Part shown: one piece after another, positions 29,623 to 45,918 of the stretch
How the letters are laid out: each line of letters begins with the position of its first letter
How positions within the stretch are numbered: position 1 is the first letter of the stretch
IMG/VR virus record: IMGVR_UViG_2582581022_000007
Coordinates: 1-48,575 of that record
Reading direction: 5' to 3' (one strand)
DNA length: 48,575 nt
DNA from: a virus
Lineage: Duplodnaviria > Heunggongvirae > Uroviricota > Caudoviricetes
Made by a program: the position numbers and the translations under genes
The notes under the pieces: generated by a model
Seen by the model: only the letters and a program-made list of their open reading frames with translations
Database searches by the model: none
Told to the model about the DNA's origin: nothing

Positions 29623-29654
29623 AGCCCGCGTAACTGCGGGCTTTTTTGTTTTTG
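29623..29654 (+). terminator. rho-independent terminator after lysis cassette
   Basis: AGCCCGC-gtaact-GCGGGCT + TTTTTTGTTTTTG. Confidence 0.75.
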
Positions 29655-29880: not shown

Positions 29881-31071
29881 ATGTTGACTGACACCAGGCT
29901 GCGTCACCTTAAGCCGAAGGAGAAACTCTATAAAGTTAATGACCGTGATGGTCTGTATGTTGCGGTCACTCCGGCTGGAACTATTTCATTTCGTTATAAC
30001 TATTCAATAAACGGAAGACAGGAGACCGTTACTTTTGGCCGCTATGGTGTTGGAGGGATCACGCTTGCAGAAGCGCGTGAACGGCTCAATGAAGCTAAAA
30101 AAATGGTTGCCAGTGGAAGATCGCCAGCGAGGGAAAAAGCTAGAGATAAAGCTCGTATCAAAGATGCGGAGACTTTTGGTGCATGGGCTGAGAAATGGTT
30201 ACGCGGTTATCAAATGGCTGAATCGACGCGTGATATGCGGCGTTCGGTATATCAAAGGGAGTTGAAGTCAAAATTTGCGCAGCAGAAATTGACCGAGATT
30301 ACACATGAAGACTTACGCGCATTAACCGATAACATTGTCGAGAGAGGGGCACCGGCGACAGCTGTGCACGCCAGAGAGATTGTATTGCAAGTCTATCGCT
30401 GGGCTATTGAGCGCGGTCAGAAGGTTGAGAATCCCGCTGATCTGGTACGGCCTGCAAGCATAGCGAAATTTGAGCCTCGTGACAGGGCATTGACGCCAGT
30501 TGAAATTGGTCTGATGTATCGGTACATGGAACGGGTAGGAACGACGCCATCAATCAGAGCAGCGGTTAAACTTTTGCTGTTAACGATGGTACGTAAAAGT
30601 GAGCTTACTAACGCAACCTGGAACGAGATCAATTTTAGTGAGGCATTATGGACGATACCAAAGGAGAGGATGAAACGACGTAATCCACATTTGGTTTTTC
30701 TTTCCAGACAGGCAATGGATATTATGATTGCTCTCAAAACCTTTGCCGGTAGCTCTGATTTTATCCTTCCTTCGCGGTACGATTCCGATGCGCCAATGAG
30801 TAGCGCTACTTTAAACCGGGTTTTGACACTGACGTATCGTCTGGCTCAGAAAGAAGGGGACTTGTTACCTAAGTTTGGTCCCCATGACTTACGGCGTACT
30901 GCCAGCACCTTGCTACATGAGGCCGGGTACAATACTGACTGGATTGAGAAGTGCCTTGCCCATGAACAAAAGGGGGTACGAGCTGTTTATAACAAGGCTG
31001 AATATCGTGAGCAGAGGGCCGAGATGCTACAAGATTGGGCGAATATGATTGATGAATGGACTAGTAAGTAG
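29881..31071 (+). CDS. int: tyrosine recombinase/integrase, P4-type
   Basis: N-terminal arm-binding-like region (RLRHLKPKEKLYKVNDRDGLYVAV); C-terminal catalytic signature HDLRRTASTLLHEAGY...CLAHEQKGVRAVYNKAEY. Confidence 0.9.
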   Translation: MLTDTRLRHLKPKEKLYKVNDRDGLYVAVTPAGTISFRYNYSINGRQETVTFGRYGVGGITLAEARERLNEAKKMVASGRSPAREKARDKARIKDAETFGAWAEKWLRGYQMAESTRDMRRSVYQRELKSKFAQQKLTEITHEDLRALTDNIVERGAPATAVHAREIVLQVYRWAIERGQKVENPADLVRPASIAKFEPRDRALTPVEIGLMYRYMERVGTTPSIRAAVKLLLLTMVRKSELTNATWNEINFSEALWTIPKERMKRRNPHLVFLSRQAMDIMIALKTFAGSSDFILPSRYDSDAPMSSATLNRVLTLTYRLAQKEGDLLPKFGPHDLRRTASTLLHEAGYNTDWIEKCLAHEQKGVRAVYNKAEYREQRAEMLQDWANMIDEWTSK

Positions 31072-31125
31072 TTAATAATCAGTGATTTAAGTGGATATAC
31101 TTCTTTTATCTACGCCAGGAGAGCA

Positions 31126-31142
31126 ATTTTAGCCGCTAAAAT
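31126..31142. promoter_or_regulatory. 17-bp perfect palindrome ATTTTAGCCGCTAAAAT (KorB operator-like), copy 1
   Basis: Matches the TTTAGC(C/G)GCTAAA IncP KorB operator consensus as I recall it; ~55 bp upstream of gene 31195. Confidence 0.5.
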
Positions 31143-31194
31143 TTACTGAATCTTTACTGGTTTTATCTGGATTGCATAAAAAGGAAAAATAAAA

Positions 31195-31824
31195 GTGCCT
31201 GAGTTGTCTGTAATTATACAATGGATGAATCAATACCCTAAGACCGGCTGGCTATTGCTGTGTATCTATATTGCACTCGGTGTAGTTCGTCACAGAGTAA
31301 TTAATGCTGAATCTGGAAGTGTATTTCGTGGACTACTCAATCTTAGGAAGCGCCGGCTAGAGCAAATGCTGACACAGCCATATTTGAATAAAAATGCGGT
31401 CCGTCTGGCAAAGCGTGAGCTTCGTCAGCGCAGCCTTTATCGGCTCACAGGCTTGTATAATTATCGGCTGCAGGATTTGGCTGTAATAATGTGTGATCGT
31501 TATGGGTTGCGGGCTGGTTATCTCAAGCCGTGGCGTAACTGGCTCGAAGAACGGGATGGACGGATTGTGTTCAACAGGAAATGGCATTGTTTTCGCTGGC
31601 GTCTTTTTCTGGTAGGTCAGATTGTAAACACAGTTCTACTAATCTTATTCATTATGTATATAGTTTCTCATTCTTCGGCCGAAATGATCGCACCGCTTAT
31701 GTTACTCTTCATGCTTGTATGGTGGTTTCCTTGGCTAATGATCACCTCGGTACCTACCCCTAGGTGGACTCGCGAAATGGAAGTCTATCTTGAGAAATTT
31801 AACGCTGAACAGACCATGGTTTAA
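31195..31824 (+). CDS. hypothetical membrane protein
   Basis: 209 aa, several hydrophobic segments; GTG start with AAGGA RBS; flanked by palindrome copies 1 and 2. Confidence 0.45.
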   Translation: MPELSVIIQWMNQYPKTGWLLLCIYIALGVVRHRVINAESGSVFRGLLNLRKRRLEQMLTQPYLNKNAVRLAKRELRQRSLYRLTGLYNYRLQDLAVIMCDRYGLRAGYLKPWRNWLEERDGRIVFNRKWHCFRWRLFLVGQIVNTVLLILFIMYIVSHSSAEMIAPLMLLFMLVWWFPWLMITSVPTPRWTREMEVYLEKFNAEQTMV

Positions 31825-31961
31825 ACTGTTCTTTGTTACCATGCATTCAGAGTGAATTGTCAGAGTTTTGGAAGATTCCATCCTACGAGTAATACTCACA
31901 AGGTAATTCACATAATCAATAGGTTAAGTCATAAGCTTCTTGACCCTACATGAGAAGACGA

Positions 31962-31978
31962 ATTTTAGCTGCTAAAAG
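31962..31978. promoter_or_regulatory. KorB operator-like palindrome, copy 2 (ATTTTAGCTGCTAAAAG)
   Basis: One central and one terminal mismatch; flanking ~15 bp also resemble copy 1. Confidence 0.4.
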
Positions 31979-32401
31979 TTTGGGCATATTTGGACTTAAA
32001 TGCCACCGACATGATTCTAATAATTAAGCCAGTACCTAATGAGCCAAGAGAAGACAACTGTAAACGCCCCTTGGCTTAGACTTGCTTTCAGGAAAGCGAA
32101 TGCTTTTTATGGTCAGGGACAAGTAAGGGGATGAGCCATTGCATAACCATAAAACCAATTCGTTCTATGTCATTACAGATCGGCTTCAGTGATTTACTGG
32201 TGAGGTAGTATCACTGTGATCCGTTTTGCATAACGCTTACAGCTGCGCTACAAACAATAAACTATAATACTGTATTTTCAAAATCATCAATTTGAAGCAG
32301 GGTAATCGCGAAAAACCCTCGTAAGTGGCTGGTTATAATTCAATAAAGTGGATGATATTAAGACTTAAACTGCCACCATAATAGCTCGTGGATATACTAT
32401 T

Positions 32402-33373
32402 TTAAATATAAAATTCTTTCCTCACAGACGCTAAGGCCTTGGACACAGCCTGCTTTGTCATAGTTGTGTAGTGATTTTTTTCTAAAACCTGTGCGGTTTC
32501 AAACTGGTTAAAACCTTGGTGTTTTAATATGATTATTTTTTTCTTAGTATCAGTGAATTTGGAGTCAACCATTCGTCTGGCAATATTCCTAAGTTTATCT
32601 AGATCTGCTGGGGTTAAAGTTTGACCCTGCATCCACTCATGAAAATAGGTATCAATCAATATATCCCCTGTGTTTGCGTTAGCTTTATGCGGTTTAGCGC
32701 ATTGCCGTCTAAGCCTTATTAATTCTTTATTGAACTGTTCGAGAGACCGCTTTCCTTGTCTGTATTTGGGATTCCATAGACCATTGGTGAGTTTGGGCCT
32801 ATGGTCAGAACAATATCGATGACTAAGGACCTGTTTTTCATGAACGGGGAACTCATTATCGTTAGCAACAAATTCTGATATCTCACTGATCAACTTGGAA
32901 AATTCGGTTAGATTACCGCAGAACTCGCAATAACCGAGCTTACGCTGTGAATTTATAGTTACTCCTTTTGCAGGAGAGGATTTCTTCGGCCGCTTGGATG
33001 CGCACTCACTGACTAATTCAATAAGAGACTCAATCGTAGCGGTAAAGCATTTATCAAGAGAAGTTTGTTGATCTAAAGTCAGAACGAAATTACGCAAAAG
33101 AAGTCTTTGTGCCTGTACTACGACGTTTAAGCCCACTTTTTTAAGTACATCACTAAATCCTAGATTTACTCCAGAAATGTAGTCTTTATGACTTGGTGGC
33201 AGGGAATTTACATAAGCAGCTACTGCTGGATCAATAACTTCCTGTATGAGACGCAGTATTGGATACCTCCGTGAAAATATGGAGTACGGATAACTACGCT
33301 CTACAAATAATTTAATTGCAGCTGCAACTGTGAGGTCACAGCCTTCCCAGATAGTAATTTTCATGTCAACCAT
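32402..33373 (-). CDS. hypothetical regulator-like protein with Cys/His cluster and C-terminal HTH-like segment
   Basis: AT-rich ORF divergent from alpA; CEFCGN...CSDH cluster; start set at first ATG not overlapping alpA; no convincing RBS. Confidence 0.4.
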   Translation of the reverse strand: MVDMKITIWEGCDLTVAAAIKLFVERSYPYSIFSRRYPILRLIQEVIDPAVAAYVNSLPPSHKDYISGVNLGFSDVLKKVGLNVVVQAQRLLLRNFVLTLDQQTSLDKCFTATIESLIELVSECASKRPKKSSPAKGVTINSQRKLGYCEFCGNLTEFSKLISEISEFVANDNEFPVHEKQVLSHRYCSDHRPKLTNGLWNPKYRQGKRSLEQFNKELIRLRRQCAKPHKANANTGDILIDTYFHEWMQGQTLTPADLDKLRNIARRMVDSKFTDTKKKIIILKHQGFNQFETAQVLEKNHYTTMTKQAVSKALASVRKEFYI

Positions 33374-33450
33374 TTTAGCCAATGAATAGGTTTTAGCAAG
33401 TGGTAATGCTTGGCATTGTATAGGCCTGATTGGAAACAGGAGGAAGGCAG

Positions 33451-33681
33451 ATGCAAACAAAGGCACATAGCACGCTCATTAACAGAAAAACACTTCTGGA
33501 AATGATCCCATTGTCAGCCCGCACTATTTATAACCTTGAACAGCGAGGCGAGTTTCCTCGCCGTATAGCACTTACTAGTCGAAATGTTGCATGGCAGTTA
33601 TCCGAAGTGGAACAGTGGATTGCGGATCGTAAATCAGCAATGTTTAAAGCGGCCAGACCCGGTGTTGTTTTAGGTAGGTAA
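33451..33681 (+). CDS. alpA: AlpA-family transcriptional regulator (prophage CP4-57 regulatory protein type)
   Basis: ~76 aa with LLEMIPLSARTIYNLEQRGEFPRRI HTH; AGGAGGAAGG RBS before ATG 33451. Confidence 0.75.
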   Translation: MQTKAHSTLINRKTLLEMIPLSARTIYNLEQRGEFPRRIALTSRNVAWQLSEVEQWIADRKSAMFKAARPGVVLGR

Positions 33682-33686
33682 CAGCA

Positions 33687-34544
33687 ATGTCATTGAACAT
33701 AATGGAAGCATTTGAAGCTAAGCCACAACCAATTGATTACGTCTTGCCTAATTTGGCTATTGGTACTATCGGAGCGATTGTTTCTCCGGGAGGCGCTGGA
33801 AAGTCAATGCTGGCATTACAATTGGCTGTGCAGATTACTTGTGGTGTAGATCTTTTAAACTTTGGTGAATATCCGACTGGGTTGGTGGCATATTTACCTG
33901 TGGAGGACTCTGAAACCATCGTTCACCATCGTTTATATGCGTTGGGAAAATATCTAACAGCACGTCAGCAGCAGATTGTAGCTGATAAGCTACTGGTCGA
34001 ACCTTTGGTAGGGAAGTGTCCAAATATTTTCTTGCCGGATTGGAGCAACTTGATCAATGAAGTTTCAAAAGGTAGACGTTTAATAATTTTGGATACTCTT
34101 CGCCGTTTCCACCAGGAGGATGAGAATAATAGCGCAGCAATGTCCAAAGTCATTGGAAAGCTAGAAGGTATTGCTGCTGATACTGGATGTTCGATTATAT
34201 TTCTACACCATTCAAACAAAGGCGCTGCCACGATGGGGGTTGGTGATATACAGCAGGCAAGCAGGGGTAGTAGCGTCCTGGTTGATAATATACGGTGGCA
34301 ATCTTATCTGGCGGGCATGACCGCCTTGGAAGCGAAGACGTATGGTATTTCTGATGATGTTCGAGGTCAATTTGTTAGATTTGGAATAAATAAAGTAAAT
34401 TATGGAGAACGTGCGCCAGATCGTTGGTTACAGAGACATGAGGGGGGAGTATTAAAAATAACGGCGCTCAGCTCGAAGAATAATAAAAAGCTTACTAAAG
34501 AAAGAACATCTACCTGGAGTGGCGCTGACAATGACAACTGGTAA
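33687..34544 (+). CDS. RecA-fold P-loop ATPase (AAA_25/RepA-like)
   Basis: Walker A IVSPGGAGKSMLALQLA, Walker B-like RLIILDTL, IIFLHHSNK; typical partner of alpA in integrative islands. Confidence 0.6.
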   Translation: MSLNIMEAFEAKPQPIDYVLPNLAIGTIGAIVSPGGAGKSMLALQLAVQITCGVDLLNFGEYPTGLVAYLPVEDSETIVHHRLYALGKYLTARQQQIVADKLLVEPLVGKCPNIFLPDWSNLINEVSKGRRLIILDTLRRFHQEDENNSAAMSKVIGKLEGIAADTGCSIIFLHHSNKGAATMGVGDIQQASRGSSVLVDNIRWQSYLAGMTALEAKTYGISDDVRGQFVRFGINKVNYGERAPDRWLQRHEGGVLKITALSSKNNKKLTKERTSTWSGADNDNW

Positions 34545-35313
34545 TAAAGTGGCACCCACAAGTACAGCTTGGCAAGCCCGAGTAATTCTGTACCAGCCAA
34601 GCCAGCGTCCTAAGGAGGTGAAGGGACAATGGATGGAGACTAGTTTTGGTCGTTGTCGTGTTACCGGACGGCTCGGACAGCGTCATGCCGATATCGTAGA
34701 GACAATATTATATGTTGCCGAGCAACGTCGTGAAATTTCTGATGGTGGAATCGAATTATTAGTAGATCCAGCGAAAGTACGCCGAACGCTATCCGATGCA
34801 CAATACAGTTATGGTCGTATACAGAAATTGCTTTTAGATCTGCGCGTCGCAACAGTTGAAATTATAACGCCAGAGCTGGAGAAAAGCGGCGACTGTATAA
34901 TAGGGGGACTGATCGATCATGTAGTGCCATCACCTATGACGCGTCCAGATCCTTTGACTGGGGGAGAACGCCGTTTATGGCGTGTCCGTCTGGGTGTTGC
35001 ATTAGCGATGTTACTCAAAAAAGATTTGCCATTTTATTATCATCCTGGCCCCATAGCTCGGCTACAACATGGTATTAGCCAGGCAGTCGCTCGTCATGTC
35101 TTAACCCATAGTAATAATCCTTTAGGAGGGTGGTATATGGATACGTTGATATTAGCAGTATGCGGTGAAGGAACGAGTAATATGACTTTACGTAACTATC
35201 GTCGGAGATTGAAAGAAGATTCCGTGCAATTGCTGGAAATTGGAATTGATTTGAACGGTTCTAGGATAAAACGTGTCACAACGGCCCGATATTGTGTCAC
35301 AACGGCCCGATAG
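34519..35313 (+). CDS. hypothetical protein, possibly replication-associated (3' end overlaps iteron array)
   Basis: 264-aa ORF; last ~40 nt lie within 21-bp iterons; start codon uncertain (GTG 34519 or ATG 34531). Confidence 0.35.
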   Translation: MALTMTTGNKVAPTSTAWQARVILYQPSQRPKEVKGQWMETSFGRCRVTGRLGQRHADIVETILYVAEQRREISDGGIELLVDPAKVRRTLSDAQYSYGRIQKLLLDLRVATVEIITPELEKSGDCIIGGLIDHVVPSPMTRPDPLTGGERRLWRVRLGVALAMLLKKDLPFYYHPGPIARLQHGISQAVARHVLTHSNNPLGGWYMDTLILAVCGEGTSNMTLRNYRRRLKEDSVQLLEIGIDLNGSRIKRVTTARYCVTTAR

Positions 35314-35356
35314 CGTGTTATAGCGGCCCGGTAGCGTGCTACAGCGGCCCGATTTT
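35273..35356. repeat. iteron-like array, 4 tandem 21-bp repeats (GTGTCACAACGGCCCGATATT and variants)
   Basis: Units at 35273, 35294, 35315, 35336 share GTG-yyAyAgCGGCCCGrTa core; followed by AT-rich region with GATC sites. Confidence 0.7.
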
Positions 35357-35564
35357 TTACTATTCAGCAGTATTTACAGGATCGTTCAGGATCTACAGTC
35401 TTTGAAATCACCTGCCTGAGCAGGCGCTTTCAAATCTAGAATCGGCCAAAGGCCGATGGTTGTACGCCAGAAGAAGAGATTACTTACTCGTTTGGTATAT
35501 TGACACTTGAGGTAGGTTTTATGACATATGAGGTACGCCCCTAGCTTTAGGCATAGGGAGGAAG

Positions 35565-35581
35565 ATTTTAGCCGCTAAAAT
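35565..35581. promoter_or_regulatory. KorB operator-like perfect palindrome ATTTTAGCCGCTAAAAT, copy 3
   Basis: Identical 17-mer to copy 1; ~400 bp upstream of mobC-like gene. Confidence 0.5.
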
Positions 35582-35970
35582 CTGCAATGCACATGCTTTG
35601 ACAATGTAAGTAAAAAAGTGCATGAGAAAATAAAATATTTCTTACAATATATCGAAACATAAATACAGTTGGTGGACGCCCATTTATAACTACTAAAGGT
35701 CATTTTCAAAAGGGAGAAATATAGTTTCCTTGCAAGAAACACATTTGCTGCAGATCTTTACCCGAGTAATCCTATATTAATACGCTAAGAAAACACATCC
35801 TGTACACTGAAATACACATTGATGTGCACAGATATACTACGGCAACAGGAGGGCAGGACATGTAAAGTAGGCCCACCGCTACGGTGTTCCAACTTTACCA
35901 CTCCCTATTCGCCGCATCGCGGCTCAAGGGCGTCCTGCTCTGCCAGGCTACCGCCTGTATGGAGAGCTAT

Positions 35971-36324
35971 ATGAAAGTTACTCAGACTAGAAAAAATAGT
36001 ACGCCAATAAAAGTTTATTGTTTACCCGAAGAAAAAATTCTCATCCAAGAAAATGCAGAAGCATCTGGATTAAGTGTTGCCTGTTTTGTTCGTAGAGTTG
36101 CAATGGGTTATCAGGTTGATTCTATCGTAGATATAAAACAGGTTAATGAACTTAGCCGAGTAAACGCTGATCTTGGAAGACTTGGCGGATTACTTAAATT
36201 ATGGCTCGCAAATGATCCTCGAACAGTTGATTTTTCACCCACCCTGATAAGAACCTTGCTTGCGAAAATAGAATCAACTCGGCAAGAACTAAGGAACATT
36301 ATGGATAAAATCTTGGATAAATAA
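35971..36324 (+). CDS. MobC-like ribbon-helix-helix mobilisation accessory protein (putative)
   Basis: 117 aa from ATG 35971 (GGAGAG RBS); IKVYCLPEEKILIQENAEASGLSVACFVRRVAMG resembles relaxosome RHH proteins. Confidence 0.45.
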   Translation: MKVTQTRKNSTPIKVYCLPEEKILIQENAEASGLSVACFVRRVAMGYQVDSIVDIKQVNELSRVNADLGRLGGLLKLWLANDPRTVDFSPTLIRTLLAKIESTRQELRNIMDKILDK

Positions 36325-36405
36325 ATGTGTGGTTTCCTATATACCTGCGTCTGTTAAAAGACAGTGTGTTAAATATTACTGAACTGATGAAAAAGAGGTG
36401 AGCAA

Positions 36406-37200
36406 ATGAATTTAATGTTCCGAGTGGTTTCATTACAAAGAGGGATTTTAGCCGCTAAAAAAGCTTTAATAGTTCCTTTCGTGGCGTCCGTCATGGCATT
36501 ACCGGTTAAGGCCGGAATTCCCGTTATTGATGGCACTAATGTGGTTCAGACCACAATCAGCGCAGTTAACAACGTTCAGGCTGTGACTAAACAGATCCAG
36601 CAGTACCAGACGCAGCTGCAGCAGTATGAAAACATGCTCAAAAATACCGTCGCACCTGCGGCCTATATCTGGGATCAGGCCAATTCAACCATCAACAAAT
36701 TGTTGCAGGCGCAGGACACTCTTAATTACTACAAAAATCAGGCCGGGAGTCTTGATTCATATCTGAAACGTTATCAGGACGTGAATTACTACCGCTCATC
36801 ACCGTGCTTTAACAGTAATGTTGAATGTACTGCAGATGAAATCAGCGCACTGCGTAAAGCAGAACAGAACAGCTCTGAGGCGCGTAAAAAGGCCAATGAC
36901 GCCGTTTTTAAGGCTCTTGATGAACAGCAAGAAACACTGCAAAGCGATGCTGATAACCTGGCAGATTTGCAAACTCAGGCAACCGGCGCACAAGGGCAAA
37001 TGGAAGCTATTCAGGCCGCTAACCAGCTTGCAAGTGCTCAAACGAACCAGCTGCTGCAAATCCGCTCGCTCCTGGTAGCCCAGCAAAACGCTGCAGCAAC
37101 ACTGGCACAGGCTCAGGCAGATAAAGAATCACAACAGATAGCCGCTGATGAAAAAGCGTTAGCTGGAGAGAATACACCAAGCCCGAAGCGAATTTGGTGA
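36406..37200 (+). CDS. trbJ: TrbJ/VirB5-like type IV secretion protein
   Basis: Signal peptide, Q-rich coiled-coil (QIQQYQTQLQQYENMLKNT), ~260 aa, followed by small lipoprotein and TrbL-like gene as in IncP trbJ-trbK-trbL. Confidence 0.6.
   Translation: MNLMFRVVSLQRGILAAKKALIVPFVASVMALPVKAGIPVIDGTNVVQTTISAVNNVQAVTKQIQQYQTQLQQYENMLKNTVAPAAYIWDQANSTINKLLQAQDTLNYYKNQAGSLDSYLKRYQDVNYYRSSPCFNSNVECTADEISALRKAEQNSSEARKKANDAVFKALDEQQETLQSDADNLADLQTQATGAQGQMEAIQAANQLASAQTNQLLQIRSLLVAQQNAAATLAQAQADKESQQIAADEKALAGENTPSPKRIW
36445..36461. promoter_or_regulatory. KorB operator-like palindrome, copy 4 (ATTTTAGCCGCTAAAAA), inside trbJ 5' end
   Basis: 16/17 palindrome; encodes ILAAK within the putative signal peptide. 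Confidence 0.4.
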
Positions 37201-37211
37201 GGAAACGCAGA

Positions 37212-37385
37212 ATGAAAGATAATCTTTTGATTGTATTTATTCTGATCAGTTTATTGGCCATATGTTCTTGCGATAAAAATGATAAAGATTGTTTATCGAC
37301 GCCAGATAATAAATTTGATGAAAATAAATACGATAAATGTGCTCTACGGAGTAATAATAAACCAAGCCCTAAACGAGAATGGTAA
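37212..37385 (+). CDS. trbK: small lipoprotein, TrbK-like (entry exclusion) by position
   Basis: MKDNLLIVFILISLLAICSC signal/lipobox-like N-terminus, 57 aa, between trbJ-like and trbL-like genes. Confidence 0.45.
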   Translation: MKDNLLIVFILISLLAICSCDKNDKDCLSTPDNKFDENKYDKCALRSNNKPSPKREW

Positions 37386-38779
37386 TCATGAAAATAGCAA
37401 GTAAGCTCACCTTTCTAGGTATCATAATTTTCTTTTCTATAAATGCCTATGCTGGTCAATTAGATAGTAGCGGGCTACTTGATTCTTTATTAGATAAGTT
37501 TCAACAAGTAGCCAGTACATGGACAACAGTAATTGCTGACTATGCAAATTGGCTCTTCTGGGGGCTGGTATTAATAAGTATGGTTTGGACATTTGGTATG
37601 ATGGCAATGCAAGGAGAAGGGTTGACAGGCGTACTTGCTGAAATAGTTCGCTTTTTTGCCGTCATTGGTTTTTTTTATTATCTTTTAATCAACGGCCCAT
37701 CCATATCGCAATCCATAATTAATTCAATGAGGCAACTTGCAGCAAACGCTTTAGGAATAAGTACTGGTATTTCGCCCTCAAGCATAGTTGATATGGCGTT
37801 TGCGATATTAACAAAGGTCAGTTCAGCCGCATCAATTTGGTCGCCAATGATATCCACCATTATGATAACAGTAGCGATAATCGTTTTGGTAGTGATGTCC
37901 CTTATAGCGATAAATATGCTAATCATGTTGGTTTCTGCATGGGTGTTATGTTATGCAGGAGTTATATTGCTTGGATTTAGTGGTTCGAAATGGACCTCTG
38001 ATATAGCAATTAATTACTTACGAACTGTTTTATCGATTGGCATTCAATTATTCACGATGACATTAATTATTGGGATTGGACAATCATTTATAGATCAATA
38101 TTTTTCTCTTATTAAAGATGATGTTCCTGATCTTAATAGTCTTATCGTTTTGCTTCTGGCGTCAATTATCCTGTTAGTATTAACGAATAAGCTACCACTG
38201 TTGTTATCAGGTGTTGTAGGAGGAGCTTCTTTACAAGGGATTGGTGGATTTGGGGCGGGTATGATTACTGGCGCTGCCGCTACTGCCATCAGCGGTGCTG
38301 GAGCAATTGCAATGGGGGCATCAGCTCAAGTCAGCGGCGGAGCCTCTGCATTAAAGGCAGCGTTCGAGTCTGCGCAAGCTGCCATGGCCGAGGAATCTGG
38401 TTCAGGTGGTGGAGGCGGTTCCGGTGGAGGATTTGGCGTCGGGGAAGATACCGGTTCTGTAGATACTTCTGGAGGCCAACCCTCAGGCAGTTCCGGTGGT
38501 TCGTCAGCATGGAGCAGTTCAGTTAGCTCCAGCGGAGGAAGTCAGGGGTTTGCTTCATTCTCACGAGCTGGCCGCATGGCAAGCCATATGGGAAGCATCA
38601 TGGCCAACGGAGCTGCTGAGTACCAGAAAATGAAGCGAAGTAGCAATTCTTCTCGTGTCCAACAAACTATTGGAGGGGAGTTGGCGACTCAGATACGTAA
38701 GCAGACAGCTACTCATCGGGATAACCGCGAACATGATGATTTTGCCGATGATAGCTTATCGGGTAATAATAAATCTTGA
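37379..38779 (+). CDS. trbL: TrbL/VirB6-like polytopic membrane protein
   Basis: 466 aa, many transmembrane segments, Gly/Ser-rich C-terminal tail (SGSGGGGGSGGGFGVGEDTGS). Confidence 0.65.
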   Translation: MVIMKIASKLTFLGIIIFFSINAYAGQLDSSGLLDSLLDKFQQVASTWTTVIADYANWLFWGLVLISMVWTFGMMAMQGEGLTGVLAEIVRFFAVIGFFYYLLINGPSISQSIINSMRQLAANALGISTGISPSSIVDMAFAILTKVSSAASIWSPMISTIMITVAIIVLVVMSLIAINMLIMLVSAWVLCYAGVILLGFSGSKWTSDIAINYLRTVLSIGIQLFTMTLIIGIGQSFIDQYFSLIKDDVPDLNSLIVLLLASIILLVLTNKLPLLLSGVVGGASLQGIGGFGAGMITGAAATAISGAGAIAMGASAQVSGGASALKAAFESAQAAMAEESGSGGGGGSGGGFGVGEDTGSVDTSGGQPSGSSGGSSAWSSSVSSSGGSQGFASFSRAGRMASHMGSIMANGAAEYQKMKRSSNSSRVQQTIGGELATQIRKQTATHRDNREHDDFADDSLSGNNKS

Positions 38780-38860
38780 ATCATGTGCGTCAGTTAACGA
38801 GGTAGCGTGAGCTGACGCTTTCACTGTGCGAACTTTACTCCTGCAATTCAAAGGAAAAAC

Positions 38861-39325
38861 ATGTCCAGGACTCCCTATACACGGTTACGTATTGAGGGCT
38901 TCCGCAAAGCAGAGGCTTCCCTGAGACTTGAAGGAATGGACCCCAGTGGTACGCCACTGTACGAGTCCATTAAGGCACGTATTATTTCAGGTGAACTGAC
39001 GTATGAGCAGGGGCGTTCAGAGATTCTTACATACTACACAAAAGCAGATACTGACGGGCCTGTGACAGTGGGAGAGATGCTGGTAGAGGAATTTTTAAAA
39101 CCGCTGAACATGTCTCATGATGAACTGGCGGAAGCTATGGGTATCTGCAAGCAGTATATTGACGATATTATCTGCGGTTTGCGTCGTCTTACGGATGATG
39201 AGGCTCGCGTTCTTGCTGTCATATTTGGTACTGATGAGGACTTTTGGAGTAACCTTCAAAAGTTGCAAGATTGCAAGGAAAACCAAGTAAGTAGCCTTCG
39301 TCCACTTCGTGTTAGACCATGCTAG
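38861..39325 (+). CDS. HigA-like XRE-family HTH protein with N-terminal VbhA/FicA-like SxxxEG motif region
   Basis: C-terminal VGEMLVEEFLKPLNMSHDELAEAMGICKQYIDDIICGLRRLTDDEARVLAVIFGTDEDFWSNLQ matches HigA antitoxin HTH pattern; N-terminal ASLRLEGMDPSG has the (S/T)xxxE(G/N) motif. Confidence 0.55.
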   Translation: MSRTPYTRLRIEGFRKAEASLRLEGMDPSGTPLYESIKARIISGELTYEQGRSEILTYYTKADTDGPVTVGEMLVEEFLKPLNMSHDELAEAMGICKQYIDDIICGLRRLTDDEARVLAVIFGTDEDFWSNLQKLQDCKENQVSSLRPLRVRPC

Positions 39326-39514
39326 CTGCTCTTCACATGTCATGAATGTTAGAATATTTGTTCAAAGTCATTTCTTCAGAGCAAAATTTTTAATAGCGGA
39401 TAGAAAAATGCAAGGTATGTTGGAAAAATAAACGAAGCGAGTACGCAAACGTCTTGAAATGCAGTAACATCATTCCGCCACACTGGCAGTTGGCTAACGG
39501 CGAAAGGAGTTCAT

Positions 39515-40747
39515 GTGAGCCAAGAAGATGATGATAAGTATCCAGCTAGCGCCGTATCCTCATGGAGCGGCTTCGTTTATCAAGGGAAAATTGCATTATA
39601 TCACTCCCTCAAGATTATTCACGATGGCGATCTAGACTTTGAGCTTCAGCTAGACAGTAGTGACGACTTCGCTATTTATAAAAATGGAAAACTACACACA
39701 GCCCATCAAGTCAAAGCGAAGATAAGTAAATATCGAAGTGGTTACACCAAGGCGCTGGAACAGTCTACTTTAATCGAACACGACAAAATCCAAGGGACAA
39801 CGCGTTACTTCCATGTATCTGTTCCTCTAAATAATACGGACGATCATAGAGGCGCTAGCGGAGAAATAGTAAAATTCTATCGCTATGGGGATAATTATTA
39901 TTGTGGTTTGGGTGAAATTGAAGGGCTTACCAAAGAACTAATAAAAAAAATATGTAATAAGCAGCACATCATTGTCAGTGATAACCTTATAAATTTTAAC
40001 TATTGTTTACTTTCTGAAAAAATCAGCACCAAGGCAATATACAATCATAAATTAAATCAGGTTGGCGGAATTTCAGAAAACAGAGCAGCATATGAGGGTC
40101 GTATCAAGGCCAGAAATATTCTAGAAGACCTGCTAACCGAAAACCCCTATCAGAATAGGGACTACTATGCAGTTGCATTAAAGGCCAGGCTTCAAACTCA
40201 TCTGGAAGAGAGGTTGGATCAGGCGCTTCCAACAATGAGTGACACTACTTACGAGAGAGCTAGATGTCTGTGTGAGCACATTCGCGAAACTCATATCAAT
40301 GAATTGAAAGCCCTATGCCAGATGATGAAGCCCTCCGAGCGATTTCAAGACGTTCAGACGAACGACATCAGGCGATACACCAAGCTTATCCAGGCTATTT
40401 CGGTGGAGCCTATATTCAACCACCTCCCACACTACCTTGACAGCGAAAATCGATTTTACGTACCTACCGCTCTTGATGTAGATGAAAGCGAAGAGTGTGA
40501 GTTTGACATGACCCGTGAAATGAAAAACAACGGGGATCTGCTGAGACTACTTTTTGAGTATAACCATCTAATCGCCAGCAAAGCAGAAGCCTCATTCACC
40601 TTTAATACAAAATTTACAAACTCAGATGACTTCGACAACAAGCAGACCACTGAAAAGCTCGAAAGCAACATCACCAAGTCGCTATGCATTAGCGTGATAA
40701 CAAAAGACGATGCGGAGGAACGACTGAATGATAAAGCAACTCATTGA
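39515..40747 (+). CDS. candidate defence effector, LmuA-like (N-terminal PD-(D/E)xK-like nuclease motifs)
   Basis: GTG start with AAAGGAG RBS; GFVYQGKIALYHS...DLDFELQLDSSDDF...HQVKAK suggests D...D...(E/Q)xK nuclease; first gene of coupled operon. Confidence 0.45.
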   Translation: MSQEDDDKYPASAVSSWSGFVYQGKIALYHSLKIIHDGDLDFELQLDSSDDFAIYKNGKLHTAHQVKAKISKYRSGYTKALEQSTLIEHDKIQGTTRYFHVSVPLNNTDDHRGASGEIVKFYRYGDNYYCGLGEIEGLTKELIKKICNKQHIIVSDNLINFNYCLLSEKISTKAIYNHKLNQVGGISENRAAYEGRIKARNILEDLLTENPYQNRDYYAVALKARLQTHLEERLDQALPTMSDTTYERARCLCEHIRETHINELKALCQMMKPSERFQDVQTNDIRRYTKLIQAISVEPIFNHLPHYLDSENRFYVPTALDVDESEECEFDMTREMKNNGDLLRLLFEYNHLIASKAEASFTFNTKFTNSDDFDNKQTTEKLESNITKSLCISVITKDDAEERLNDKATH

Positions 40748-41393
40748 TGAAGCACTTGTTGCACATGGCTTTGTTAGTAAACGCGACTTGGACAACACAA
40801 GCTTTTATATTCGCGAGTCTGGATCTGCTATCAGGTTTGCAGTTCTATATAATCTTGATGACCTTCCTGACCCAGCCGAATTGAATAATAGAATCAATCA
40901 TCTTGCTCCTAGTGAATTTCTCAGAAACCCAAGCTTTAAGAAAAACTGCGACTTGATTTGTATTTATCGTCTTGATGTTCTGGCCAATTTCAAAGATCAC
41001 GAAGAAGAGATTTTCGCAATTGAAGAAGATCCGCACTTCTATAAAAAGTATGTTCTCTATTACAGTATCGCGGAAGAAAGTGCACTCACTAATTTCACCT
41101 ACGACAAACTGGTATCTGTTATTGCTGACAAAAAAGAATTTCTTGAATACAAAGAAAATCCTCTTAACGCCACACAATACAGCTTTGCGGCGAAGACCTT
41201 TATCAAGCTTCCTTTTTTAGAGTTACCTAACCATCAAGAAAATCTTGTGTCCTTGAGGTTACAGGCAGCAGAGGCCGTTGCACAAGCCAGCCTGAACGAT
41301 ACGTATTTGACTATCCAGAAAGTCACAGATAAAAACGCCGACGAAATTATCAAGGAAATGATTAAAAATGAACTGGCAAATATCCAAGATTGA
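40728..41393 (+). CDS. small middle-gene protein of the operon (LmuC-like by position)
   Basis: 221 aa; overlaps upstream gene by 20 nt and downstream gene by 26 nt; GGAGGA RBS. Confidence 0.45.
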   Translation: MIKQLIDEALVAHGFVSKRDLDNTSFYIRESGSAIRFAVLYNLDDLPDPAELNNRINHLAPSEFLRNPSFKKNCDLICIYRLDVLANFKDHEEEIFAIEEDPHFYKKYVLYYSIAEESALTNFTYDKLVSVIADKKEFLEYKENPLNATQYSFAAKTFIKLPFLELPNHQENLVSLRLQAAEAVAQASLNDTYLTIQKVTDKNADEIIKEMIKNELANIQD

Positions 41394-43701
41394 AGTCTCT
41401 AGCTTCAAAGCTTTCAAGCATATCTATTTGGATCTTGACAAGTCGTCTTTGCTAACTCTGGACGGCCCTAACGGTTATGGTAAAACAAGCATATTCGACG
41501 CAATCGAACTATTGCTTACCGGCCAGATCAGTCGAATACAAAATCTATTCAAGACATTACTAACCAAGAACAAGAGAGACTACGCGGACAATCTTTTCTG
41601 GAATAGTCGCTCAGGAGAGAACGATCTCTGCATTAAGATTGAATTTACTAATGATGGTCGCAAACTTGTCTTAGCTAGACATTGCCAAGCTGCAATATTC
41701 AAAAAACCAGTAAACAATCGTGCAGACAAATACGAAAATTTCAAGCTTTATGAGCTGCCAGAATTCGAATCGTCTGAATTCACTAAGATCAATCTGCGCG
41801 ATAATAATTTCCTTGATGAAATTTTCGGAAAGAATTTCAGGGAAAACTTCTCCTTTCTTAACTATTTGGAGCAAGGGCAAAACCGGCTGTTACACACTCG
41901 GGTAGACGAACGGAAGGATAAACTAGGAAACCTATTTAATATCAGTGATATCGAAGCCGAGATTGAAAACTGCAACACTGTATACAGCAAACTCACAAGG
42001 TACATCAATAATCCTGAACGCACGGCAAAAGCTGCATCTCTTATTGAAGAAATAGCCATCCTAAAGGACACATTGCAGGCAGTGGCTGGGAACATTAAGT
42101 ACAAAAAACTCTCGACGACTGATGTCCAACCGGGGTGGGACAAGGAGATAATGTTCTCTACGTATTCGTCAGTGGACCATGCAGCCTACCAGGAATCAGT
42201 TCGTAAGATTATTGCCCTTCTACCACTCAAAGCCACGATAAAAACTAGGGTCCATAACGAGAGAATTGATGCCTACATCGGTCGTAATGAGGAATCTCTG
42301 AGAAGTCTGGCGCAGTTTGGTAAAGACCTGGGCAAGCTTGATGTGCTTGACGCTATCAAGAAAGGGATTGATGAGTTAGAACGTTCAGCAAGTATCATTA
42401 AACGTGGTGCTACGGTGATCAAGCTCGAAGAAGCTCGTTCATTACAAGGTTGGGCGGGTGGGCGTCTTGAGTGGTTTGAGTTACAAATTAATTCTCGAAA
42501 CAGCTTACAAGTAAAAAGTAGCGCCAACACGAACGTTGTAGCCGAATTGGAACGTCTAAAAAGGCAGTTACTTAGGGAACATAAAAAGTCTTATCCCGAC
42601 GAGCAGTTGTGCCCTCTCTGTGGTGCTGACTGGGAAGATCACAAATTAATGGCAGATGCTATTGAAGCAAGAACTAAGCAGATCTCTGAATCATTAGGAC
42701 AGGACGGTAAGGACTTAGTTAACCTTATCGCTGCTATGGACGCAGAGCTGAAACTTATCGACTCCTTTATACAAGACAGCCTGAAACTCCTTACGCCTAC
42801 ATTTGAATCGAACCTTCATGTAGGGCTGACCAGAATTAAGCTTCGGCTCCCGGCAATAACCCAAGTACTGGAAAAGCTGCAAAGCGAAAATATTCAATTT
42901 ACTGATTCATTCACGGAAATTGATGACTTAGTAGATGAGCGACTTGAAAAGCTCAAAGAGATTCTAAGAAATAAAAAACAGGTTGAGGCTGATGCCTTAA
43001 CGCTGCCGGAGGACTGGCGAGAAACCATAAATAGCTCTTTTAAAGATCTGCAGGACTTCTACATAGTCACGGCTGAAGACCTAAAGGGTAAAGAGCATTA
43101 CATATCGATTAAAGCTAACGAGGCTCAAAGTTCTAGGCTCCAAACTTGTATTAAAGATCTTAATCTTATCGAAAAAGAAACCATGGCAGCTCAAAAAGCA
43201 CAAGGTAAAATCGAAAAGCTCCGCAACACTTTGAAAAAGACCGAGCAGAACTATACTGACCAAACAATTTCGGCTATTGAGTTCATATTCCACATTTATA
43301 GTGGTCGGCTGATCCAAAACTACCAGCGTGGCCTGGGCCTGTTTATTGAGAGCCGCGAAGGTACGCAACTGAGGTTCCTGACTGCTGAGAAGTCTGAACA
43401 CGACGCAGTCATGTCCATGAGTTCAGGTCAGGTGTCTGCGCTCAGCCTTGCTTTCTTCCTCGCGCTCAACAAAGTCTATGCACGGGTTCCTCTCATATTG
43501 ATTGACGACCCGTCGCAATCACTGGATGAAGTAAACGTTGCTTCGTTGACCGATCTACTCCGTTGCGAACTCAAACATTGCCAGTTGGTTGTCTCATCGC
43601 ACGAGGACGATATCTCGGCCTATATGCGCTACCGGTTCGACAGAGCCGGTTTGACAACAAGTTCGCTCAACATGCAGCTTTTGGCGAAAGAAGCTTCGTA
43701 A
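41368..43701 (+). CDS. SMC/Rad50-like ABC ATPase with mid-protein CxxC (zinc-hook-like); LmuB-like
   Basis: Walker A GPNGYGKTS (res ~33-41), CPLCG near res ~415 in long charged helix-rich middle, C-terminal SGQVSALSLAF signature, LILIDDP Walker B, SSHED. Confidence 0.75.
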   Translation: MNWQISKIEVSSFKAFKHIYLDLDKSSLLTLDGPNGYGKTSIFDAIELLLTGQISRIQNLFKTLLTKNKRDYADNLFWNSRSGENDLCIKIEFTNDGRKLVLARHCQAAIFKKPVNNRADKYENFKLYELPEFESSEFTKINLRDNNFLDEIFGKNFRENFSFLNYLEQGQNRLLHTRVDERKDKLGNLFNISDIEAEIENCNTVYSKLTRYINNPERTAKAASLIEEIAILKDTLQAVAGNIKYKKLSTTDVQPGWDKEIMFSTYSSVDHAAYQESVRKIIALLPLKATIKTRVHNERIDAYIGRNEESLRSLAQFGKDLGKLDVLDAIKKGIDELERSASIIKRGATVIKLEEARSLQGWAGGRLEWFELQINSRNSLQVKSSANTNVVAELERLKRQLLREHKKSYPDEQLCPLCGADWEDHKLMADAIEARTKQISESLGQDGKDLVNLIAAMDAELKLIDSFIQDSLKLLTPTFESNLHVGLTRIKLRLPAITQVLEKLQSENIQFTDSFTEIDDLVDERLEKLKEILRNKKQVEADALTLPEDWRETINSSFKDLQDFYIVTAEDLKGKEHYISIKANEAQSSRLQTCIKDLNLIEKETMAAQKAQGKIEKLRNTLKKTEQNYTDQTISAIEFIFHIYSGRLIQNYQRGLGLFIESREGTQLRFLTAEKSEHDAVMSMSSGQVSALSLAFFLALNKVYARVPLILIDDPSQSLDEVNVASLTDLLRCELKHCQLVVSSHEDDISAYMRYRFDRAGLTTSSLNMQLLAKEAS

Positions 43702-43856
43702 AAGCCACCTTGGCCACCTATTAGAGCGGGTGGCTAAATTTAGTGTTTCACTACAAATAGCATAAAAGGATGCAAAAATTCGGCGAATTTATTCCACGTG
43801 TTTTTTTAAATTCAATGTATGTTAAAATTGTGTCTATTTTATATCAGGATTGTCAA

Positions 43857-44744
43857 ATGAACTCAATTGTTACAGCTAAGGCATTGTCAGCAAGGAAAAA
43901 GTTTGCAGGCCGTCAATGGTTCTACGATTTTAGAGAACTAACTCAGCGTATTGATGAACAAAATGCCCAAAAAATTGCAGATAGCCTTTCCGTTCGATAT
44001 TCAAAACTAACAAAATTTTGGGATAAGGAAAAGAATTCAGAATGGATGTGCAGAATTTATTTATCGGCAAAAATGGTGATGAACGCCACAATACAGATTA
44101 ACTCCATGGAGTTTGCAAAAGAACGCAATATCCGTATCACAACTCCTTATTTAACATATTATTCCCTCCTTTCACTTCTTCGAGGAATCGTCTACACATT
44201 ACCAGAAGTGGAATGGGAGAATGGAAAGCTTATTGAGATATCGCATCACAAAGCTATAAATTTGGCATTCGACCATCTTTCGGCATTTAATAAGGACTTA
44301 TCTGAAGAGTTTAAAAATATCACGCTCACAGCCAAGGCATATCGTGAATTAATTTCGTATCGCTCCCCAACGTCGGGTGACTCTATAATTGAATCAATAA
44401 GCATCGAAGCGATTGCCACATTGCTAGCTGAGGTGGCACAATTTAACTCTGAAATTTTGGAGTCATCCATTATTAAGAAAGCAGATGGCGCTTCGTTTGA
44501 GTTTCTTAGTAAGTATATAAAAGAGTTATCTGGCATTACTATCGAAGGTATCAATTTCTTCGATCAAGAAGATGCTTATAGGTTAAACTATCTTCGCCGA
44601 AAATACCCTCTACCTCCAAATGTTCTTCATGTCATGACGGAAGGACATGTAGAGGATTTTTTTGGGGCATGGCTACCTAGTGAAGAAATTGAAGGTGCTT
44701 TTGACCCAGATGAAAATTGGGGAGTTATTTTTGATATCCCATAG
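43857..44744 (+). CDS. hypothetical protein (orphan gene between two defence loci)
   Basis: 295 aa from ATG 43857 (AGGA RBS); follows hairpin after previous operon; no motifs I can assign. Confidence 0.4.
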   Translation: MNSIVTAKALSARKKFAGRQWFYDFRELTQRIDEQNAQKIADSLSVRYSKLTKFWDKEKNSEWMCRIYLSAKMVMNATIQINSMEFAKERNIRITTPYLTYYSLLSLLRGIVYTLPEVEWENGKLIEISHHKAINLAFDHLSAFNKDLSEEFKNITLTAKAYRELISYRSPTSGDSIIESISIEAIATLLAEVAQFNSEILESSIIKKADGASFEFLSKYIKELSGITIEGINFFDQEDAYRLNYLRRKYPLPPNVLHVMTEGHVEDFFGAWLPSEEIEGAFDPDENWGVIFDIP

Positions 44745-45064
44745 TTAATTAATTGCGAAGATTATTTTTTTTGTTAATCCAGAACTAAATTGGAATGAAA
44801 AAATATGGGGTTGGGTAGTAAATAGAGCCAATTCCCCATATCCTTCATGGCAAGAATGTTTAAGCGGTATATAACACGTTTATGGACATTCATGAGTTAT
44901 GATTTTTATAAATTAGCATTTCTAAAATCAACTTGGATATTGTAAACCTAGGTCAGTTGACCAAATCTATTACGACACTATACTATACATTTGTCTTTCG
45001 TCTAAATGCCGCTAGGTCAATATCAACGGTATTGACCTTTGCTTCGAATGAATCTTTATAAATA

Positions 45065-45916
45065 CTATGGGTAAATTAAATTGTGCTTAGTATATAAGAA
45101 CTGGACTACACCTTGGGAGTTTAAAATTCCATGAATAAAGATTGAGAACCAGTTGTTTGGTGTGCTGTACGACTGATCATATCTATTTAATGCATCATTC
45201 AAATATCTCGAAAAGTCAGCAATGGTTGGAGTATTGGCTAATGGTAACGTTTGAATTTTTAAGCTTGGGTTTTGTGTCGTTGTATCCCATTCACCTTCTA
45301 GCCAATTAATAATTCCTGATGGGAGAACAACTTTCTCCGTGTGGTATTTTATGCTGTCTATTTCTAAGTGCTGTGGTAAAACATAAGCTATTTCAATTTT
45401 AGCTTTTGGAAATTGAGGGTCTTGAGTAATGTTACACGACAAAAGCCTCTGATTAAGAAAAACGTCATAATAAGGATGTAGTATCCTTTTATTTCCATCC
45501 GTTAAATTCGTTTTTCGTTTGCTGTTGCAATCACAAGCTGGAACTAAATTTTTTGAATACACAGAAAAGCAAGGGTAGTCATCTTTAGGAAACAGGTGAT
45601 CAAGGGTTCCTGTTTTTAATGAACCGCACATTGGGCAAACGTTTGGTGAAGATGCTCTTAAATCATCAATGAACTTTAAGTCAGTTGGTGGTGAAGCGTA
45701 GTGCTTCTTCAATGCTATTGATAAATCATTGGTAATGTTGACGTTCGCAACTGATAGTGCGTTACCATTATTAGCGTCATAGTCTTGGTATCCATTTAAA
45801 ATGATCTGTAACTCATTGTGTAAATGCGGATAACTTGTTCTATGAAGCCTGTCTCTTTGAGACGTTGTCGTTATTTTCTCAATATCATTTACCGCAGGTA
45901 AAGGAAGCTTTTTCAC
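45065..45916 (-). CDS. HNH endonuclease (PtuB-like)
   Basis: CPMCGS...TLDHLFPK...PACDCNSKR HNH/zinc-finger motifs; GTG start 2 nt after upstream ATPase stop with GGAGGA RBS. Confidence 0.75.
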   Translation of the reverse strand: MKKLPLPAVNDIEKITTTSQRDRLHRTSYPHLHNELQIILNGYQDYDANNGNALSVANVNITNDLSIALKKHYASPPTDLKFIDDLRASSPNVCPMCGSLKTGTLDHLFPKDDYPCFSVYSKNLVPACDCNSKRKTNLTDGNKRILHPYYDVFLNQRLLSCNITQDPQFPKAKIEIAYVLPQHLEIDSIKYHTEKVVLPSGIINWLEGEWDTTTQNPSLKIQTLPLANTPTIADFSRYLNDALNRYDQSYSTPNNWFSIFIHGILNSQGVVQFLYTKHNLIYP

Positions 45917-45918
45917 AA

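Follow-up and report, generated by a model that had tools for sequence, protein, structure and literature searches.

An IncP-type trbJ-trbK-trbL module in an integrative mobilizable element at guaA, and a possible role in the exclusion identity of its helper plasmid

Islands integrated at guaA with a few transfer genes of IncP plasmids form an already known family, described between 2011 and 2017 and put to experiment in a 2026 preprint. A 2017 review noted that GIsul2 and the 'IncP islands' at guaA encode TrbJ, TrbK and TrbL and no other pore protein, and proposed that they reshape the pore of an IncP helper, as SGI1 does with IncC plasmids (PMC5704250). The preprint, of January 2026, named the PIME family, with 1,136 elements, and described an E. 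coli PIME1 with the gene order, 17-bp oriT repeat and Lamassu cargo found here; the IncP plasmids pB10 and pKJK5 induced its excision but mobilised neither the element nor its cloned oriT, and the authors concluded that another helper must exist for the E. coli element (bioRxiv 10.64898/2026.01.12.698999). A relative from Morganella excised, replicated from its repA-oriV and transferred, the copy number of pB10 dropping when the island replicated; the preprint mentions neither exclusion nor KorB (bioRxiv 10.64898/2026.01.12.698999). Here we describe an 18.9-kb element of this kind in a 48,575-nucleotide stretch of DNA (IMG/VR record IMGVR_UViG_2582581022_000007, positions 1 to 48,575; hereafter the window) filed as a virus of the Caudoviricetes. 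Its trbJ-trbK-trbL genes almost certainly belong, as a module, to a complete integrative mobilizable element of the PIME1/GIsul2 'IncP island' type. That these three genes give the pore of the helper and the host of the island a separate exclusion identity is a reading of the sequences to which we assign slightly less than even odds; to the combined account, of element identity and role of the three genes, we assign a probability of about 0.55.

The element (29563-48443) is bounded by a 15-bp direct repeat, GAGTGGGAATGATTT, that corresponds to the last guaA codons (..EWE stop) and occurs exactly twice in the window, with 0 copies expected: the attL core lies at 29563-29577 (+), with an epsilon15-like prophage to its left, and the attR core at 48429-48443 (+), after which native guaA downstream sequence begins. 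E. coli RM10042 carries this core too, once where guaA ends and once on the opposite border of its island. The earlier note on this DNA, which saw an isolated captured fragment of a conjugative element, left room for a type IV secretion system (T4SS) encoded just beyond the window. None is there; in related E. coli genomes the same island is flanked by guaA and yfgI, and in this copy it ends at attR. The GC content of the window drops from approximately 53% to approximately 42% past about 22 kb.

Between the att repeats lie, in order, int, an ORF of unknown function, a divergent regulator gene, alpA, repA, a second unknown ORF, oriV, oriT, traJ, trbJ, a lipoprotein gene, trbL, a HigA-like gene, a Lamassu system and the PDC-M01 pair. 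The tyrosine integrase gene (29881-31071, +; Pfam Phage_integrase, Arm-DNA-bind_3 and Phage_int_M) adjoins guaA in phage-free genomes and is followed by a conserved island ORF (31195-31824, +) that has no Pfam or PADLOC match and is listed as hypothetical in the corresponding position of two other loci (L001 and L005). The regulator gene (32402-33373, -) is divergent from alpA and occupies the 'luxR-family' position of PIME1, which its size, place and orientation fit. A homologue in one of these loci (L005) is named LuxR family regulator in RefSeq, but Pfam and NCBIfam hidden Markov models (HMMs) detected no LuxR domain in the protein even at E<=10; its 'luxR' nature rests on the RefSeq name, a reservation on this one PIME1 hallmark. 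The excision and regulation gene alpA (33430-33681, +; Pfam Phage_AlpA, 7.5e-13) precedes repA (33687-34544, +), encoding an RSF1010 RepA-like helicase (Pfam AAA_25, 2.7e-29; 'helicase RepA family' in RefSeq). The next ORF (34519-35313, +), hypothetical in L005, runs with its 3' end over the oriV iterons, approximately four 21-bp direct repeats resembling CGTGTCACAACGGCCCGATAT detected by repeat search at 35272-35353 (+) and laid out as in the functional oriV of the Morganella element PIME1-MmNCTC12028 (bioRxiv 10.64898/2026.01.12.698999). A RepC-like role for this ORF was rejected, as it had no Pfam, NCBIfam or PADLOC support even at E<=10; being conserved, with the iterons over its 3' end, it could encode an iteron-binding initiator. 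The candidate origin region of the earlier note thus proved real and double, combining the iterons with an IncP-type oriT at approximately 35849-35960. Finally, int, alpA and repA, like trbJ and trbL, all share the orientation of int, the arrangement of core genes by which the methods of the preprint define PIME1/2 (bioRxiv 10.64898/2026.01.12.698999), and integration at the guaA 3' end with a tyrosine integrase and flanking repeats, the iteron oriV and the IncP-like oriT are those of PIME1 and GIsul2; judged by the criteria of the preprint, the window element is a PIME1.

The four transfer genes follow oriT on the plus strand. The first (35971-36324), labelled MobC-like in the earlier note, encodes the oriT-binding ribbon-helix-helix relaxosome protein TraJ of IncP plasmids (NF010451, 159.4 bits, cut-off 134; NikA-like in Pfam); the MobC label was rejected, since Pfam and NCBIfam returned NikA-like, TraJ, MobA(RHH) and MbpA models and no MobC model. 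The 264-residue product of trbJ (36406-37200) is a P-type VirB5-like protein (NF010452, 386.6 bits, cut-off 286; TIGR02780, 184.5 bits, cut-off 100.55) that reached only 18 bits against the Pfam T4SS (VirB5) model, under its cut-off of 24.7; no solved structures related to it were found. The P-type VirB6-like TrbL, of 463-466 residues depending on the start (37379/37388-38779), scored 272.2 bits with TIGR02783 (cut-off 128.85) and 104.8 bits with PF04610 (cut-off 25.9). In the trbK position between them, a gene of 57-63 codons (37194/37212-37385) encodes a lipoprotein; the three genes are co-directional and their ends overlap or nearly touch. The lipoprotein did not match the TrbK_RP4 model (TIGR04359) even at E<=10, a model with which TrbK of the E. 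coli IncP plasmid p14EC001a scored 24.1 (cut-off 23) and that of the RP4-like plasmid PB11 75.8. A signal peptide and a lipobox-like ..ICSC preceding an Asp are present, and the protein has two more invariant cysteines and an invariant C-terminus, DKCALRxNNxPSPKREW, which is the best-conserved part of the protein over 14 clusters of the island TrbK family. An Asp at position +2 marks lipoproteins for retention in the inner membrane, and TrbK of RP4 has been reported in the cytoplasmic membrane. On architecture and synteny, not HMM membership, we treat this lipoprotein as a divergent TrbK. The exact 57-residue form (protein cluster P0001) occurs on at least 1000 Enterobacterales contigs, under the name 'hypothetical protein' or, wrongly, NosL.

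All Trb and Tra proteins of PB11 and p14EC001a were used as tblastn queries over the whole 48.6-kb window and matched TraJ, TrbJ and TrbL alone; the rest of a T4SS, a relaxase and a coupling protein were not detected. ORF positions, family scores far beyond chance and this outcome agree. They confirm, apart from one corrected label, the gene set proposed at first sight, an IncP-type trbJ-trbK-trbL in canonical order that lacks ATPases, a coupling protein and a relaxase; the homology of TrbJ and TrbL to IncP proteins is borne out by P-type equivalog models, and TrbK is assigned by position and architecture. An integrative and conjugative element (ICE), intact or defective, was considered and rejected, as neither a T4SS of its own (VirB4, coupling protein) nor a relaxase, nor pseudogenes of these, were found by tblastn. 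A promoter and terminator scan of 35300-39600 was uninformative, with sites no commoner than in shuffled sequences.

The element was compared with its closest described relative, PIME1-EcRHB23-C07 of E. coli, by the published description of the latter. Both share the guaA attB, int, the regulator/alpA pair, repA with an iteron oriV, an IncP-like oriT with a 17-bp repeat, the order and orientation of traJ, trbJ, trbK and trbL, the lack of a relaxase, Lamassu cargo and an E. coli host. They differ in length (22.2 kb against 18.9 kb in the window) and in the distal cargo, PDC-M01 in the window, whose copy also lies in tandem with the epsilon15-like prophage, unlike PIME1-EcRHB23-C07. GIsul2 (Nigro and Hall 2011; Harmer et al. 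2017; PMC5704250) likewise occupies the guaA 3' end with int, alpA, repA(/repC) and trbJ-trbK-trbL, lacks a relaxase, a coupling protein and other T4SS genes, and is the island for which IncP helpers and pore remodelling were proposed (PMC5704250); it carries sul2/CR2 and ars, whereas no resistance genes were seen in the window element, and its overall sequence similarity to PIME1 is low according to the preprint (bioRxiv 10.64898/2026.01.12.698999). The 'IncP islands' of Brucella suis and Burkholderia glumae share the guaA site, TraJ, TrbJ, a small ORF and TrbL (PMC5704250), but encode a MOBP relaxase of their own and TraK, neither of which is in the window.

The few transfer genes could be read as what is left, in decay and without present function, of an IncP plasmid that had integrated or of a defective ICE. 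Of about 20 transfer genes the element has just 3-4, and certain E. coli copies of the module are truncated or interrupted by insertion sequences (IS). Against such decay, the four transfer ORFs are intact in both island lineages compared, the second being an island next to tRNA-Thr/proA in E. coli PEC1003 (L004; NZ_CP160643, 11500-15000) that carries traJ-trbJ-trbK-trbL at 86% nucleotide identity, with no repA or alpA nearby. Between the two lineages dN/dS was 0.12 for traJ, 0.12 for trbJ, 0.19 for trbK and 0.14 for trbL, with dS of 0.28-0.72, and the four genes are under purifying selection to judge by these substitution rates. The same gene set recurs in island-type context (TraJ, RepA, AlpA or Int nearby, no TrbE or TrbI) in 53 of the 80 loci fetched from other genomes, covering Enterobacterales, Xanthomonas, Pseudomonas, Burkholderiales and others, the closest nine (L010-L018) being islands of enterobacterial genera. 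The att sites, oriV and oriT are complete, and relatives excise, replicate and transfer in experiments. Selection and distribution together effectively refute a functionless remnant. The idea of a captured conjugative fragment survives in its plasmid ancestry and fails in its isolation, the genes belonging to an element complete with att sites, int, alpA, repA/oriV and oriT/traJ, and the stretch is correctly annotated as a mobilizable element with defence systems as cargo instead of a dead piece of a T4SS. In 5,426 complete E. coli genomes the traJ-trbL module matched 241 places on chromosomes, and in 203 genomes such a match spanned 80% of the module or more; the best matches of the island, in E. 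coli and Shigella, were 97-99% identical and none was identical.

We then compared the transfer origin with those of plasmids, taking PB11 and an RP4-oriT vector as RP4-type references. The IncP-type oriT (35849-35960, -), located by alignment to plasmid oriTs, adjoins traJ upstream and contains a TraJ-type 17-nt inverted repeat with arms at 35862-35878 and 35882-35898. The predicted nick region reads TACTTTACATGTCCTG/CCC on the minus strand (GTCCTG/CCC, the slash marking the nick), and alignment with RP4 puts the nick between 35854 and 35853. Among plasmids, the nearest DNA belongs to IncP plasmids of approximately 50 kb from E. coli, Klebsiella and Salmonella, many with mcr-1 (p14EC001a, pMCR_1511), and to approximately 41-kb minimal IncP-1-like plasmids (pCFSA664-2). 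In an alignment of six oriTs, the nick region of the island, GGGCAGGACATGTAAAGTAGGCCCACC, was identical to that of pCFSA664-2 and one base from that of p14EC001a; the right arm of the inverted repeat was one base from p14EC001a, and the oriT repeat of the tRNA-Thr island was identical to that of pCFSA664-2. The RP4-type oriT differs from the island in nick-proximal bases and in both repeat arms. A database-wide search with the island oriT ranked the enterobacterial IncP-1-like plasmids first and RP4-derived oriTs well behind. This closeness leads us to predict that in nature the element is most likely served by helpers of the p14EC001a/pMCR_1511 and pCFSA664-2 types and not by classical RP4/pB10-type plasmids, and the failure of pB10 and pKJK5 to mobilise the E. 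coli element fits an island oriT unlike that of RP4. The match, which is new here, points to the helper that the preprint lacked; a concrete candidate for the missing helper of E. coli PIME1 would tie these islands to the spread of a plasmid group that often carries mcr-1.

The island genes relate to those of the same plasmids in patches. TrbJ is 92% identical to that of p14EC001a and 89% to that of pCFSA664-2, TrbL 56% and 55%, and TrbK 24% and 25%; TraJ is 60%, 69% and 54% identical to the proteins of p14EC001a, pCFSA664-2 and PB11, respectively. Nucleotide identity to the plasmids is 90-99% over 36541-37125, the body of trbJ, and 86-93% to enterobacterial IncP plasmids in a Gly/Ser-rich tract of trbL (38368-38583, codons approximately 341-400), and falls to 37-72% outside these two patches. 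Synonymous sites gave the same picture, dS being 0.08-0.6 in trbJ codons 41-240, 0.19-0.34 in trbL codons 341-400 (0.19-0.56 over codons 341-420) and saturated in trbK and in trbL codons 1-340. Over TrbJ residues 37-240, one amino-acid change and 33 synonymous changes separate the island from p14EC001a (dS 0.30, dN/dS 0.007). In the tail window of trbJ (codons 221-260) dS rises to 0.80 and dN to 0.21, the last 25 or so codons lying in the divergent block. In none of 72,556 plasmids (PLSDB) did the TrbL membrane domain exceed 58% identity to the island version, and tblastn and blastn with the island trbK detected nothing there. A TrbJ body almost identical to that of the plasmids, together with an allele of tail, TrbK and TrbL absent from plasmids, makes the island read as a mosaic, in which a TrbJ body expected to fit the enterobacterial IncP pore appears joined to a TrbJ tail, a TrbK and a TrbL membrane domain of the island's own. 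This synonymous-site mosaic of trbJKL is new here. The p14EC001a/pMCR_1511 and pCFSA664-2 plasmids thus share with the island the TrbJ body, the TrbL Gly/Ser tract and the closest oriT, and differ in being complete conjugative plasmids with a TrbJ tail, TrbK and TrbL membrane domain of another type. The Tra2 region of RP4/RK2 shares the trbJ-trbK-trbL order, the P-type equivalogs, an operator for KorB in the first trbJ codons and similar TrbJ and TrbK tails, but its TrbJ is 57% and its TrbL 47% identical to those of the island, and its TrbK is undetectable by tblastn or HMM.

The matching TrbJ body would also suit plain supplementation, in which extra TrbJ and TrbL, interchangeable with those of the helper, raise the number of pores or mend a helper defect, TrbK being a passenger and exclusion identity staying as it is. 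A precedent is the cross-complementation of the relaxase in Morganella, where the helper can use the island-encoded relaxase (bioRxiv 10.64898/2026.01.12.698999). We consider this explanation improbable: it leaves unexplained both the distinct TrbJ-tail/TrbK/TrbL allele that is absent from the 72,556 plasmids and the invariant TrbK tail of the island family.

The last 12 or so residues of TrbJ (37165-37200) and of TrbK (37350-37385) are alike in the window, ending in ..NTPSPKRIW and ..NKPSPKREW (..NNKPSPKREW in the longer stretch of TrbK), respectively. The corresponding tails are ..YTKSPAQSW and ..FTKSPEKKW in p14EC001a, and ..YRASPSKTW and ..FKPSEKKEW in the RP4-like PB11. To extend the comparison, TrbJ and the next lipoprotein ORF, picked by position and lipobox and blind to the tail, were taken from 80 loci (L010-L089) plus references, amounting to 84 sequences and 65 distinct pairs. 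At least six mutually dissimilar tail classes were present (..SPxxxW; DMGxPTxRSKxKGY; SPKNWLELTR; NPKNWLQVKP; WQYKASSADDF; KWDFLPSSPDRY), and within every class the TrbJ and TrbK tails match one another. The mean BLOSUM score was 40.4 for cognate and 20.4 for non-cognate combinations of the 65 pairs, and none of 10,000 permutations reached the observed sum, the loci being related, so that the independent events are nearer in number to the tail classes than to 65. Identical tail residues used the same codon in 61% of cases, with 42% expected, and the resemblance is therefore not simply fresh gene conversion. Among all six-frame ORFs of PB11, p14EC001a and the window (353-536 in each), the C-terminus of TrbK was the best match to the TrbJ tail, by a small margin in PB11. 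This resemblance of the TrbK tail to the TrbJ tail in the 80 loci, which almost all P-type loci show, is new here; the literature searched does not mention it, and Haase et al. 1996, on TrbK, might have noted it.

In RP4, trbK alone in the recipient gives 3.5-fold exclusion and trbJ with trbK 10^4-fold, the pair also protecting against killing by the RP4 T4SS; trbK shields from lethal zygosis, to which recipients carrying defence systems are vulnerable, and in pKPC_UVA01 the C-terminus of TrbK is essential. By analogy, exclusion by the island lipoprotein is plausible, and since it is just 24-25% identical to TrbK of the nearest plasmids, the island TrbK probably defines a specificity of its own. 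Tentatively, we propose that the P-type (IncP/Trb) entry-exclusion lipoprotein TrbK may act by mimicking the C-terminal tail of TrbJ, a pilus-tip/stalk protein, and that this tail, together with TrbK and the membrane domain of TrbL, may form an exchangeable module of exclusion identity, the private version of the island re-labelling the pore of the helper. The position of the mosaic break, immediately ahead of the TrbJ tail, suggests that the tail, TrbK and the membrane domain of TrbL move together as a single unit of specificity, a pattern that linkage alone could also yield. At the sequence level, the shared tail would hint at what determines IncP entry exclusion on the donor side, a determinant that none of the literature searched names.

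The same exclusion data would also fit a role of trbJ-trbK(-trbL) as a recipient-side shield only, guarding the host from IncP entry and lethal zygosis and taking no part in island transfer. Such a guard would matter especially because defence cargo could keep an incoming plasmid from becoming established and producing TrbK of its own, and the island does carry Lamassu and PDC-M01, with the TrbK tail as the best-conserved part of that protein. However, TrbL (VirB6) has no known recipient-side role and is equally conserved (dN/dS 0.14); the island TrbK has diverged from those of plasmids circulating in the same hosts; downstream of oriT, the genes come after traJ and on its strand, the gaps being short and free of any good terminator; and pB10 and pKJK5 could enter island-carrying strains (bioRxiv 10.64898/2026.01.12.698999). 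We consider a shield alone the less likely account, with a low but appreciable probability.

In the account that we favour, the three genes would act on both sides of the mating. Close relatives stay integrated until an IncP-type plasmid enters, then excise (Int, AlpA and the divergent regulator) and replicate (RepA and iterons). With its own TraJ bound there, the IncP-type oriT of the island would then be offered to the relaxase and coupling protein of the helper, and the island TrbJ, TrbK-like lipoprotein and TrbL would serve as an alternative exclusion-identity cassette for the helper pore. The TrbJ body, kept identical to that of enterobacterial IncP-1-like plasmids, would still fit their T4SS, the TrbJ tail, TrbK and TrbL membrane domain being the private allele. 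Built into the helper pore of the donor, the island proteins would allow transfer into helper-carrying cells, as SGI1 does with TraG, and TrbK (with TrbJ) in island carriers would shield these against redundant matings. The likeness to SGI1 and IncA/C plasmids (replacement of TraN, TraH and TraG), a relaxase-less island that substitutes helper pore subunits and alters exclusion, is drawn by inference and is one of analogy, not membership; the proteins are unrelated (mating-pair formation types MPF-F and MPF-T), the helper is another and SGI1 has no exclusion lipoprotein.

Several points weigh against this account. No experiment has addressed trbJ, trbK or trbL of such islands, and the Morganella relative, unlike SGI1, left the joint transfer of helper and island undiminished (bioRxiv 10.64898/2026.01.12.698999). 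The C-terminus of the island TrbL is approximately 50 residues shorter than that of plasmid TrbL, and adjacent genes are co-inherited, so that the mosaic boundary may be a historical accident and not the boundary of a functional module. As to the proposed helpers, the island TraJ is just 60-69% identical to theirs, and the nick core is GTCCTG where ATCCTG is canonical, a variant shared with pCFSA664-2. Of 295 E. coli genomes with an island or an IncP plasmid, at most one had both, with about three expected, numbers too small to indicate enrichment or depletion.

A further link between island and helper was sought in the operators of KorB, the ParB-type partition protein and global repressor of IncP-1 plasmids, whose consensus (OB) is TTTAGC(C/G)GCTAAA, TTTAGCSGCTAAA (PMC2680271, PMC3614916). 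The window contains three exact 13-bp sites and one with a single mismatch, against 0.04 expected, and all four lie inside the island: TTTAGCCGCTAAA at 31128-31140, upstream of the ORF at 31195-31824; the one-mismatch TTTAGCTGCTAAA at 31964-31976, downstream of that ORF; a site at 35567-35579, between oriV and oriT; and one at 36447-36459, in the first codons of trbJ. An OB at the start of trbJ is present in 71 of the 80 loci, and the 53 island-type loci hold 127 OB sites in 604 kb. No KorA operator (GTTTAGCTAAAC) was found in the window. Given these sites, KorB of the helper could bind the island, a plausible molecular link between helper and hitch-hiker; roles in regulation or helper sensing, in partition hitch-hiking or in KorB titration are conjecture, and titration would fit the loss of pB10 copies during replication of the Morganella island. 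That KorB operators stud these islands is new here and absent from the text of the PIME preprint.

Downstream of trbL, the cargo starts with a HigA-family antitoxin-like helix-turn-helix gene (38861-39325, +; TIGR02607, 64 bits, cut-off 47.7), followed by a Lamassu/ABC-3C defence system (39515-43701, +) encoding LmuA, LmuC and LmuB (Pfam CTD1, MComp1 and SMC_N; PADLOC LmuA, LmuC and LmuB), in which LmuA is of the Cap4-nuclease type. An ORF at 43770-44744 had no family match, and PADLOC identified the candidate defence pair PDC-M01 A/B at 45065-47385 (-). Beyond attR, at 48484-48575, the native guaA terminator stem is broken by a sequence starting CTGTCTCTTGATCAGATCT that resembles an IS end, and the window ends approximately 90 bases into this insertion-like sequence. 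On the other side, positions 1-29559 comprise the late region of an epsilon15/SPN1S-like podovirus prophage, from terminase to tailspike, with holin, GH19 endolysin and Rz-like genes; the prophage integrase is not inside the window. The prophage abuts the attL core of the island, phage and island thus lying in tandem at a common guaA attachment site, and a remnant of the prophage-island junction is present in some E. coli genomes. Within the prophage part, a tRNA-Arg gene (anticodon TCT) is located at 5477-5553 (-).

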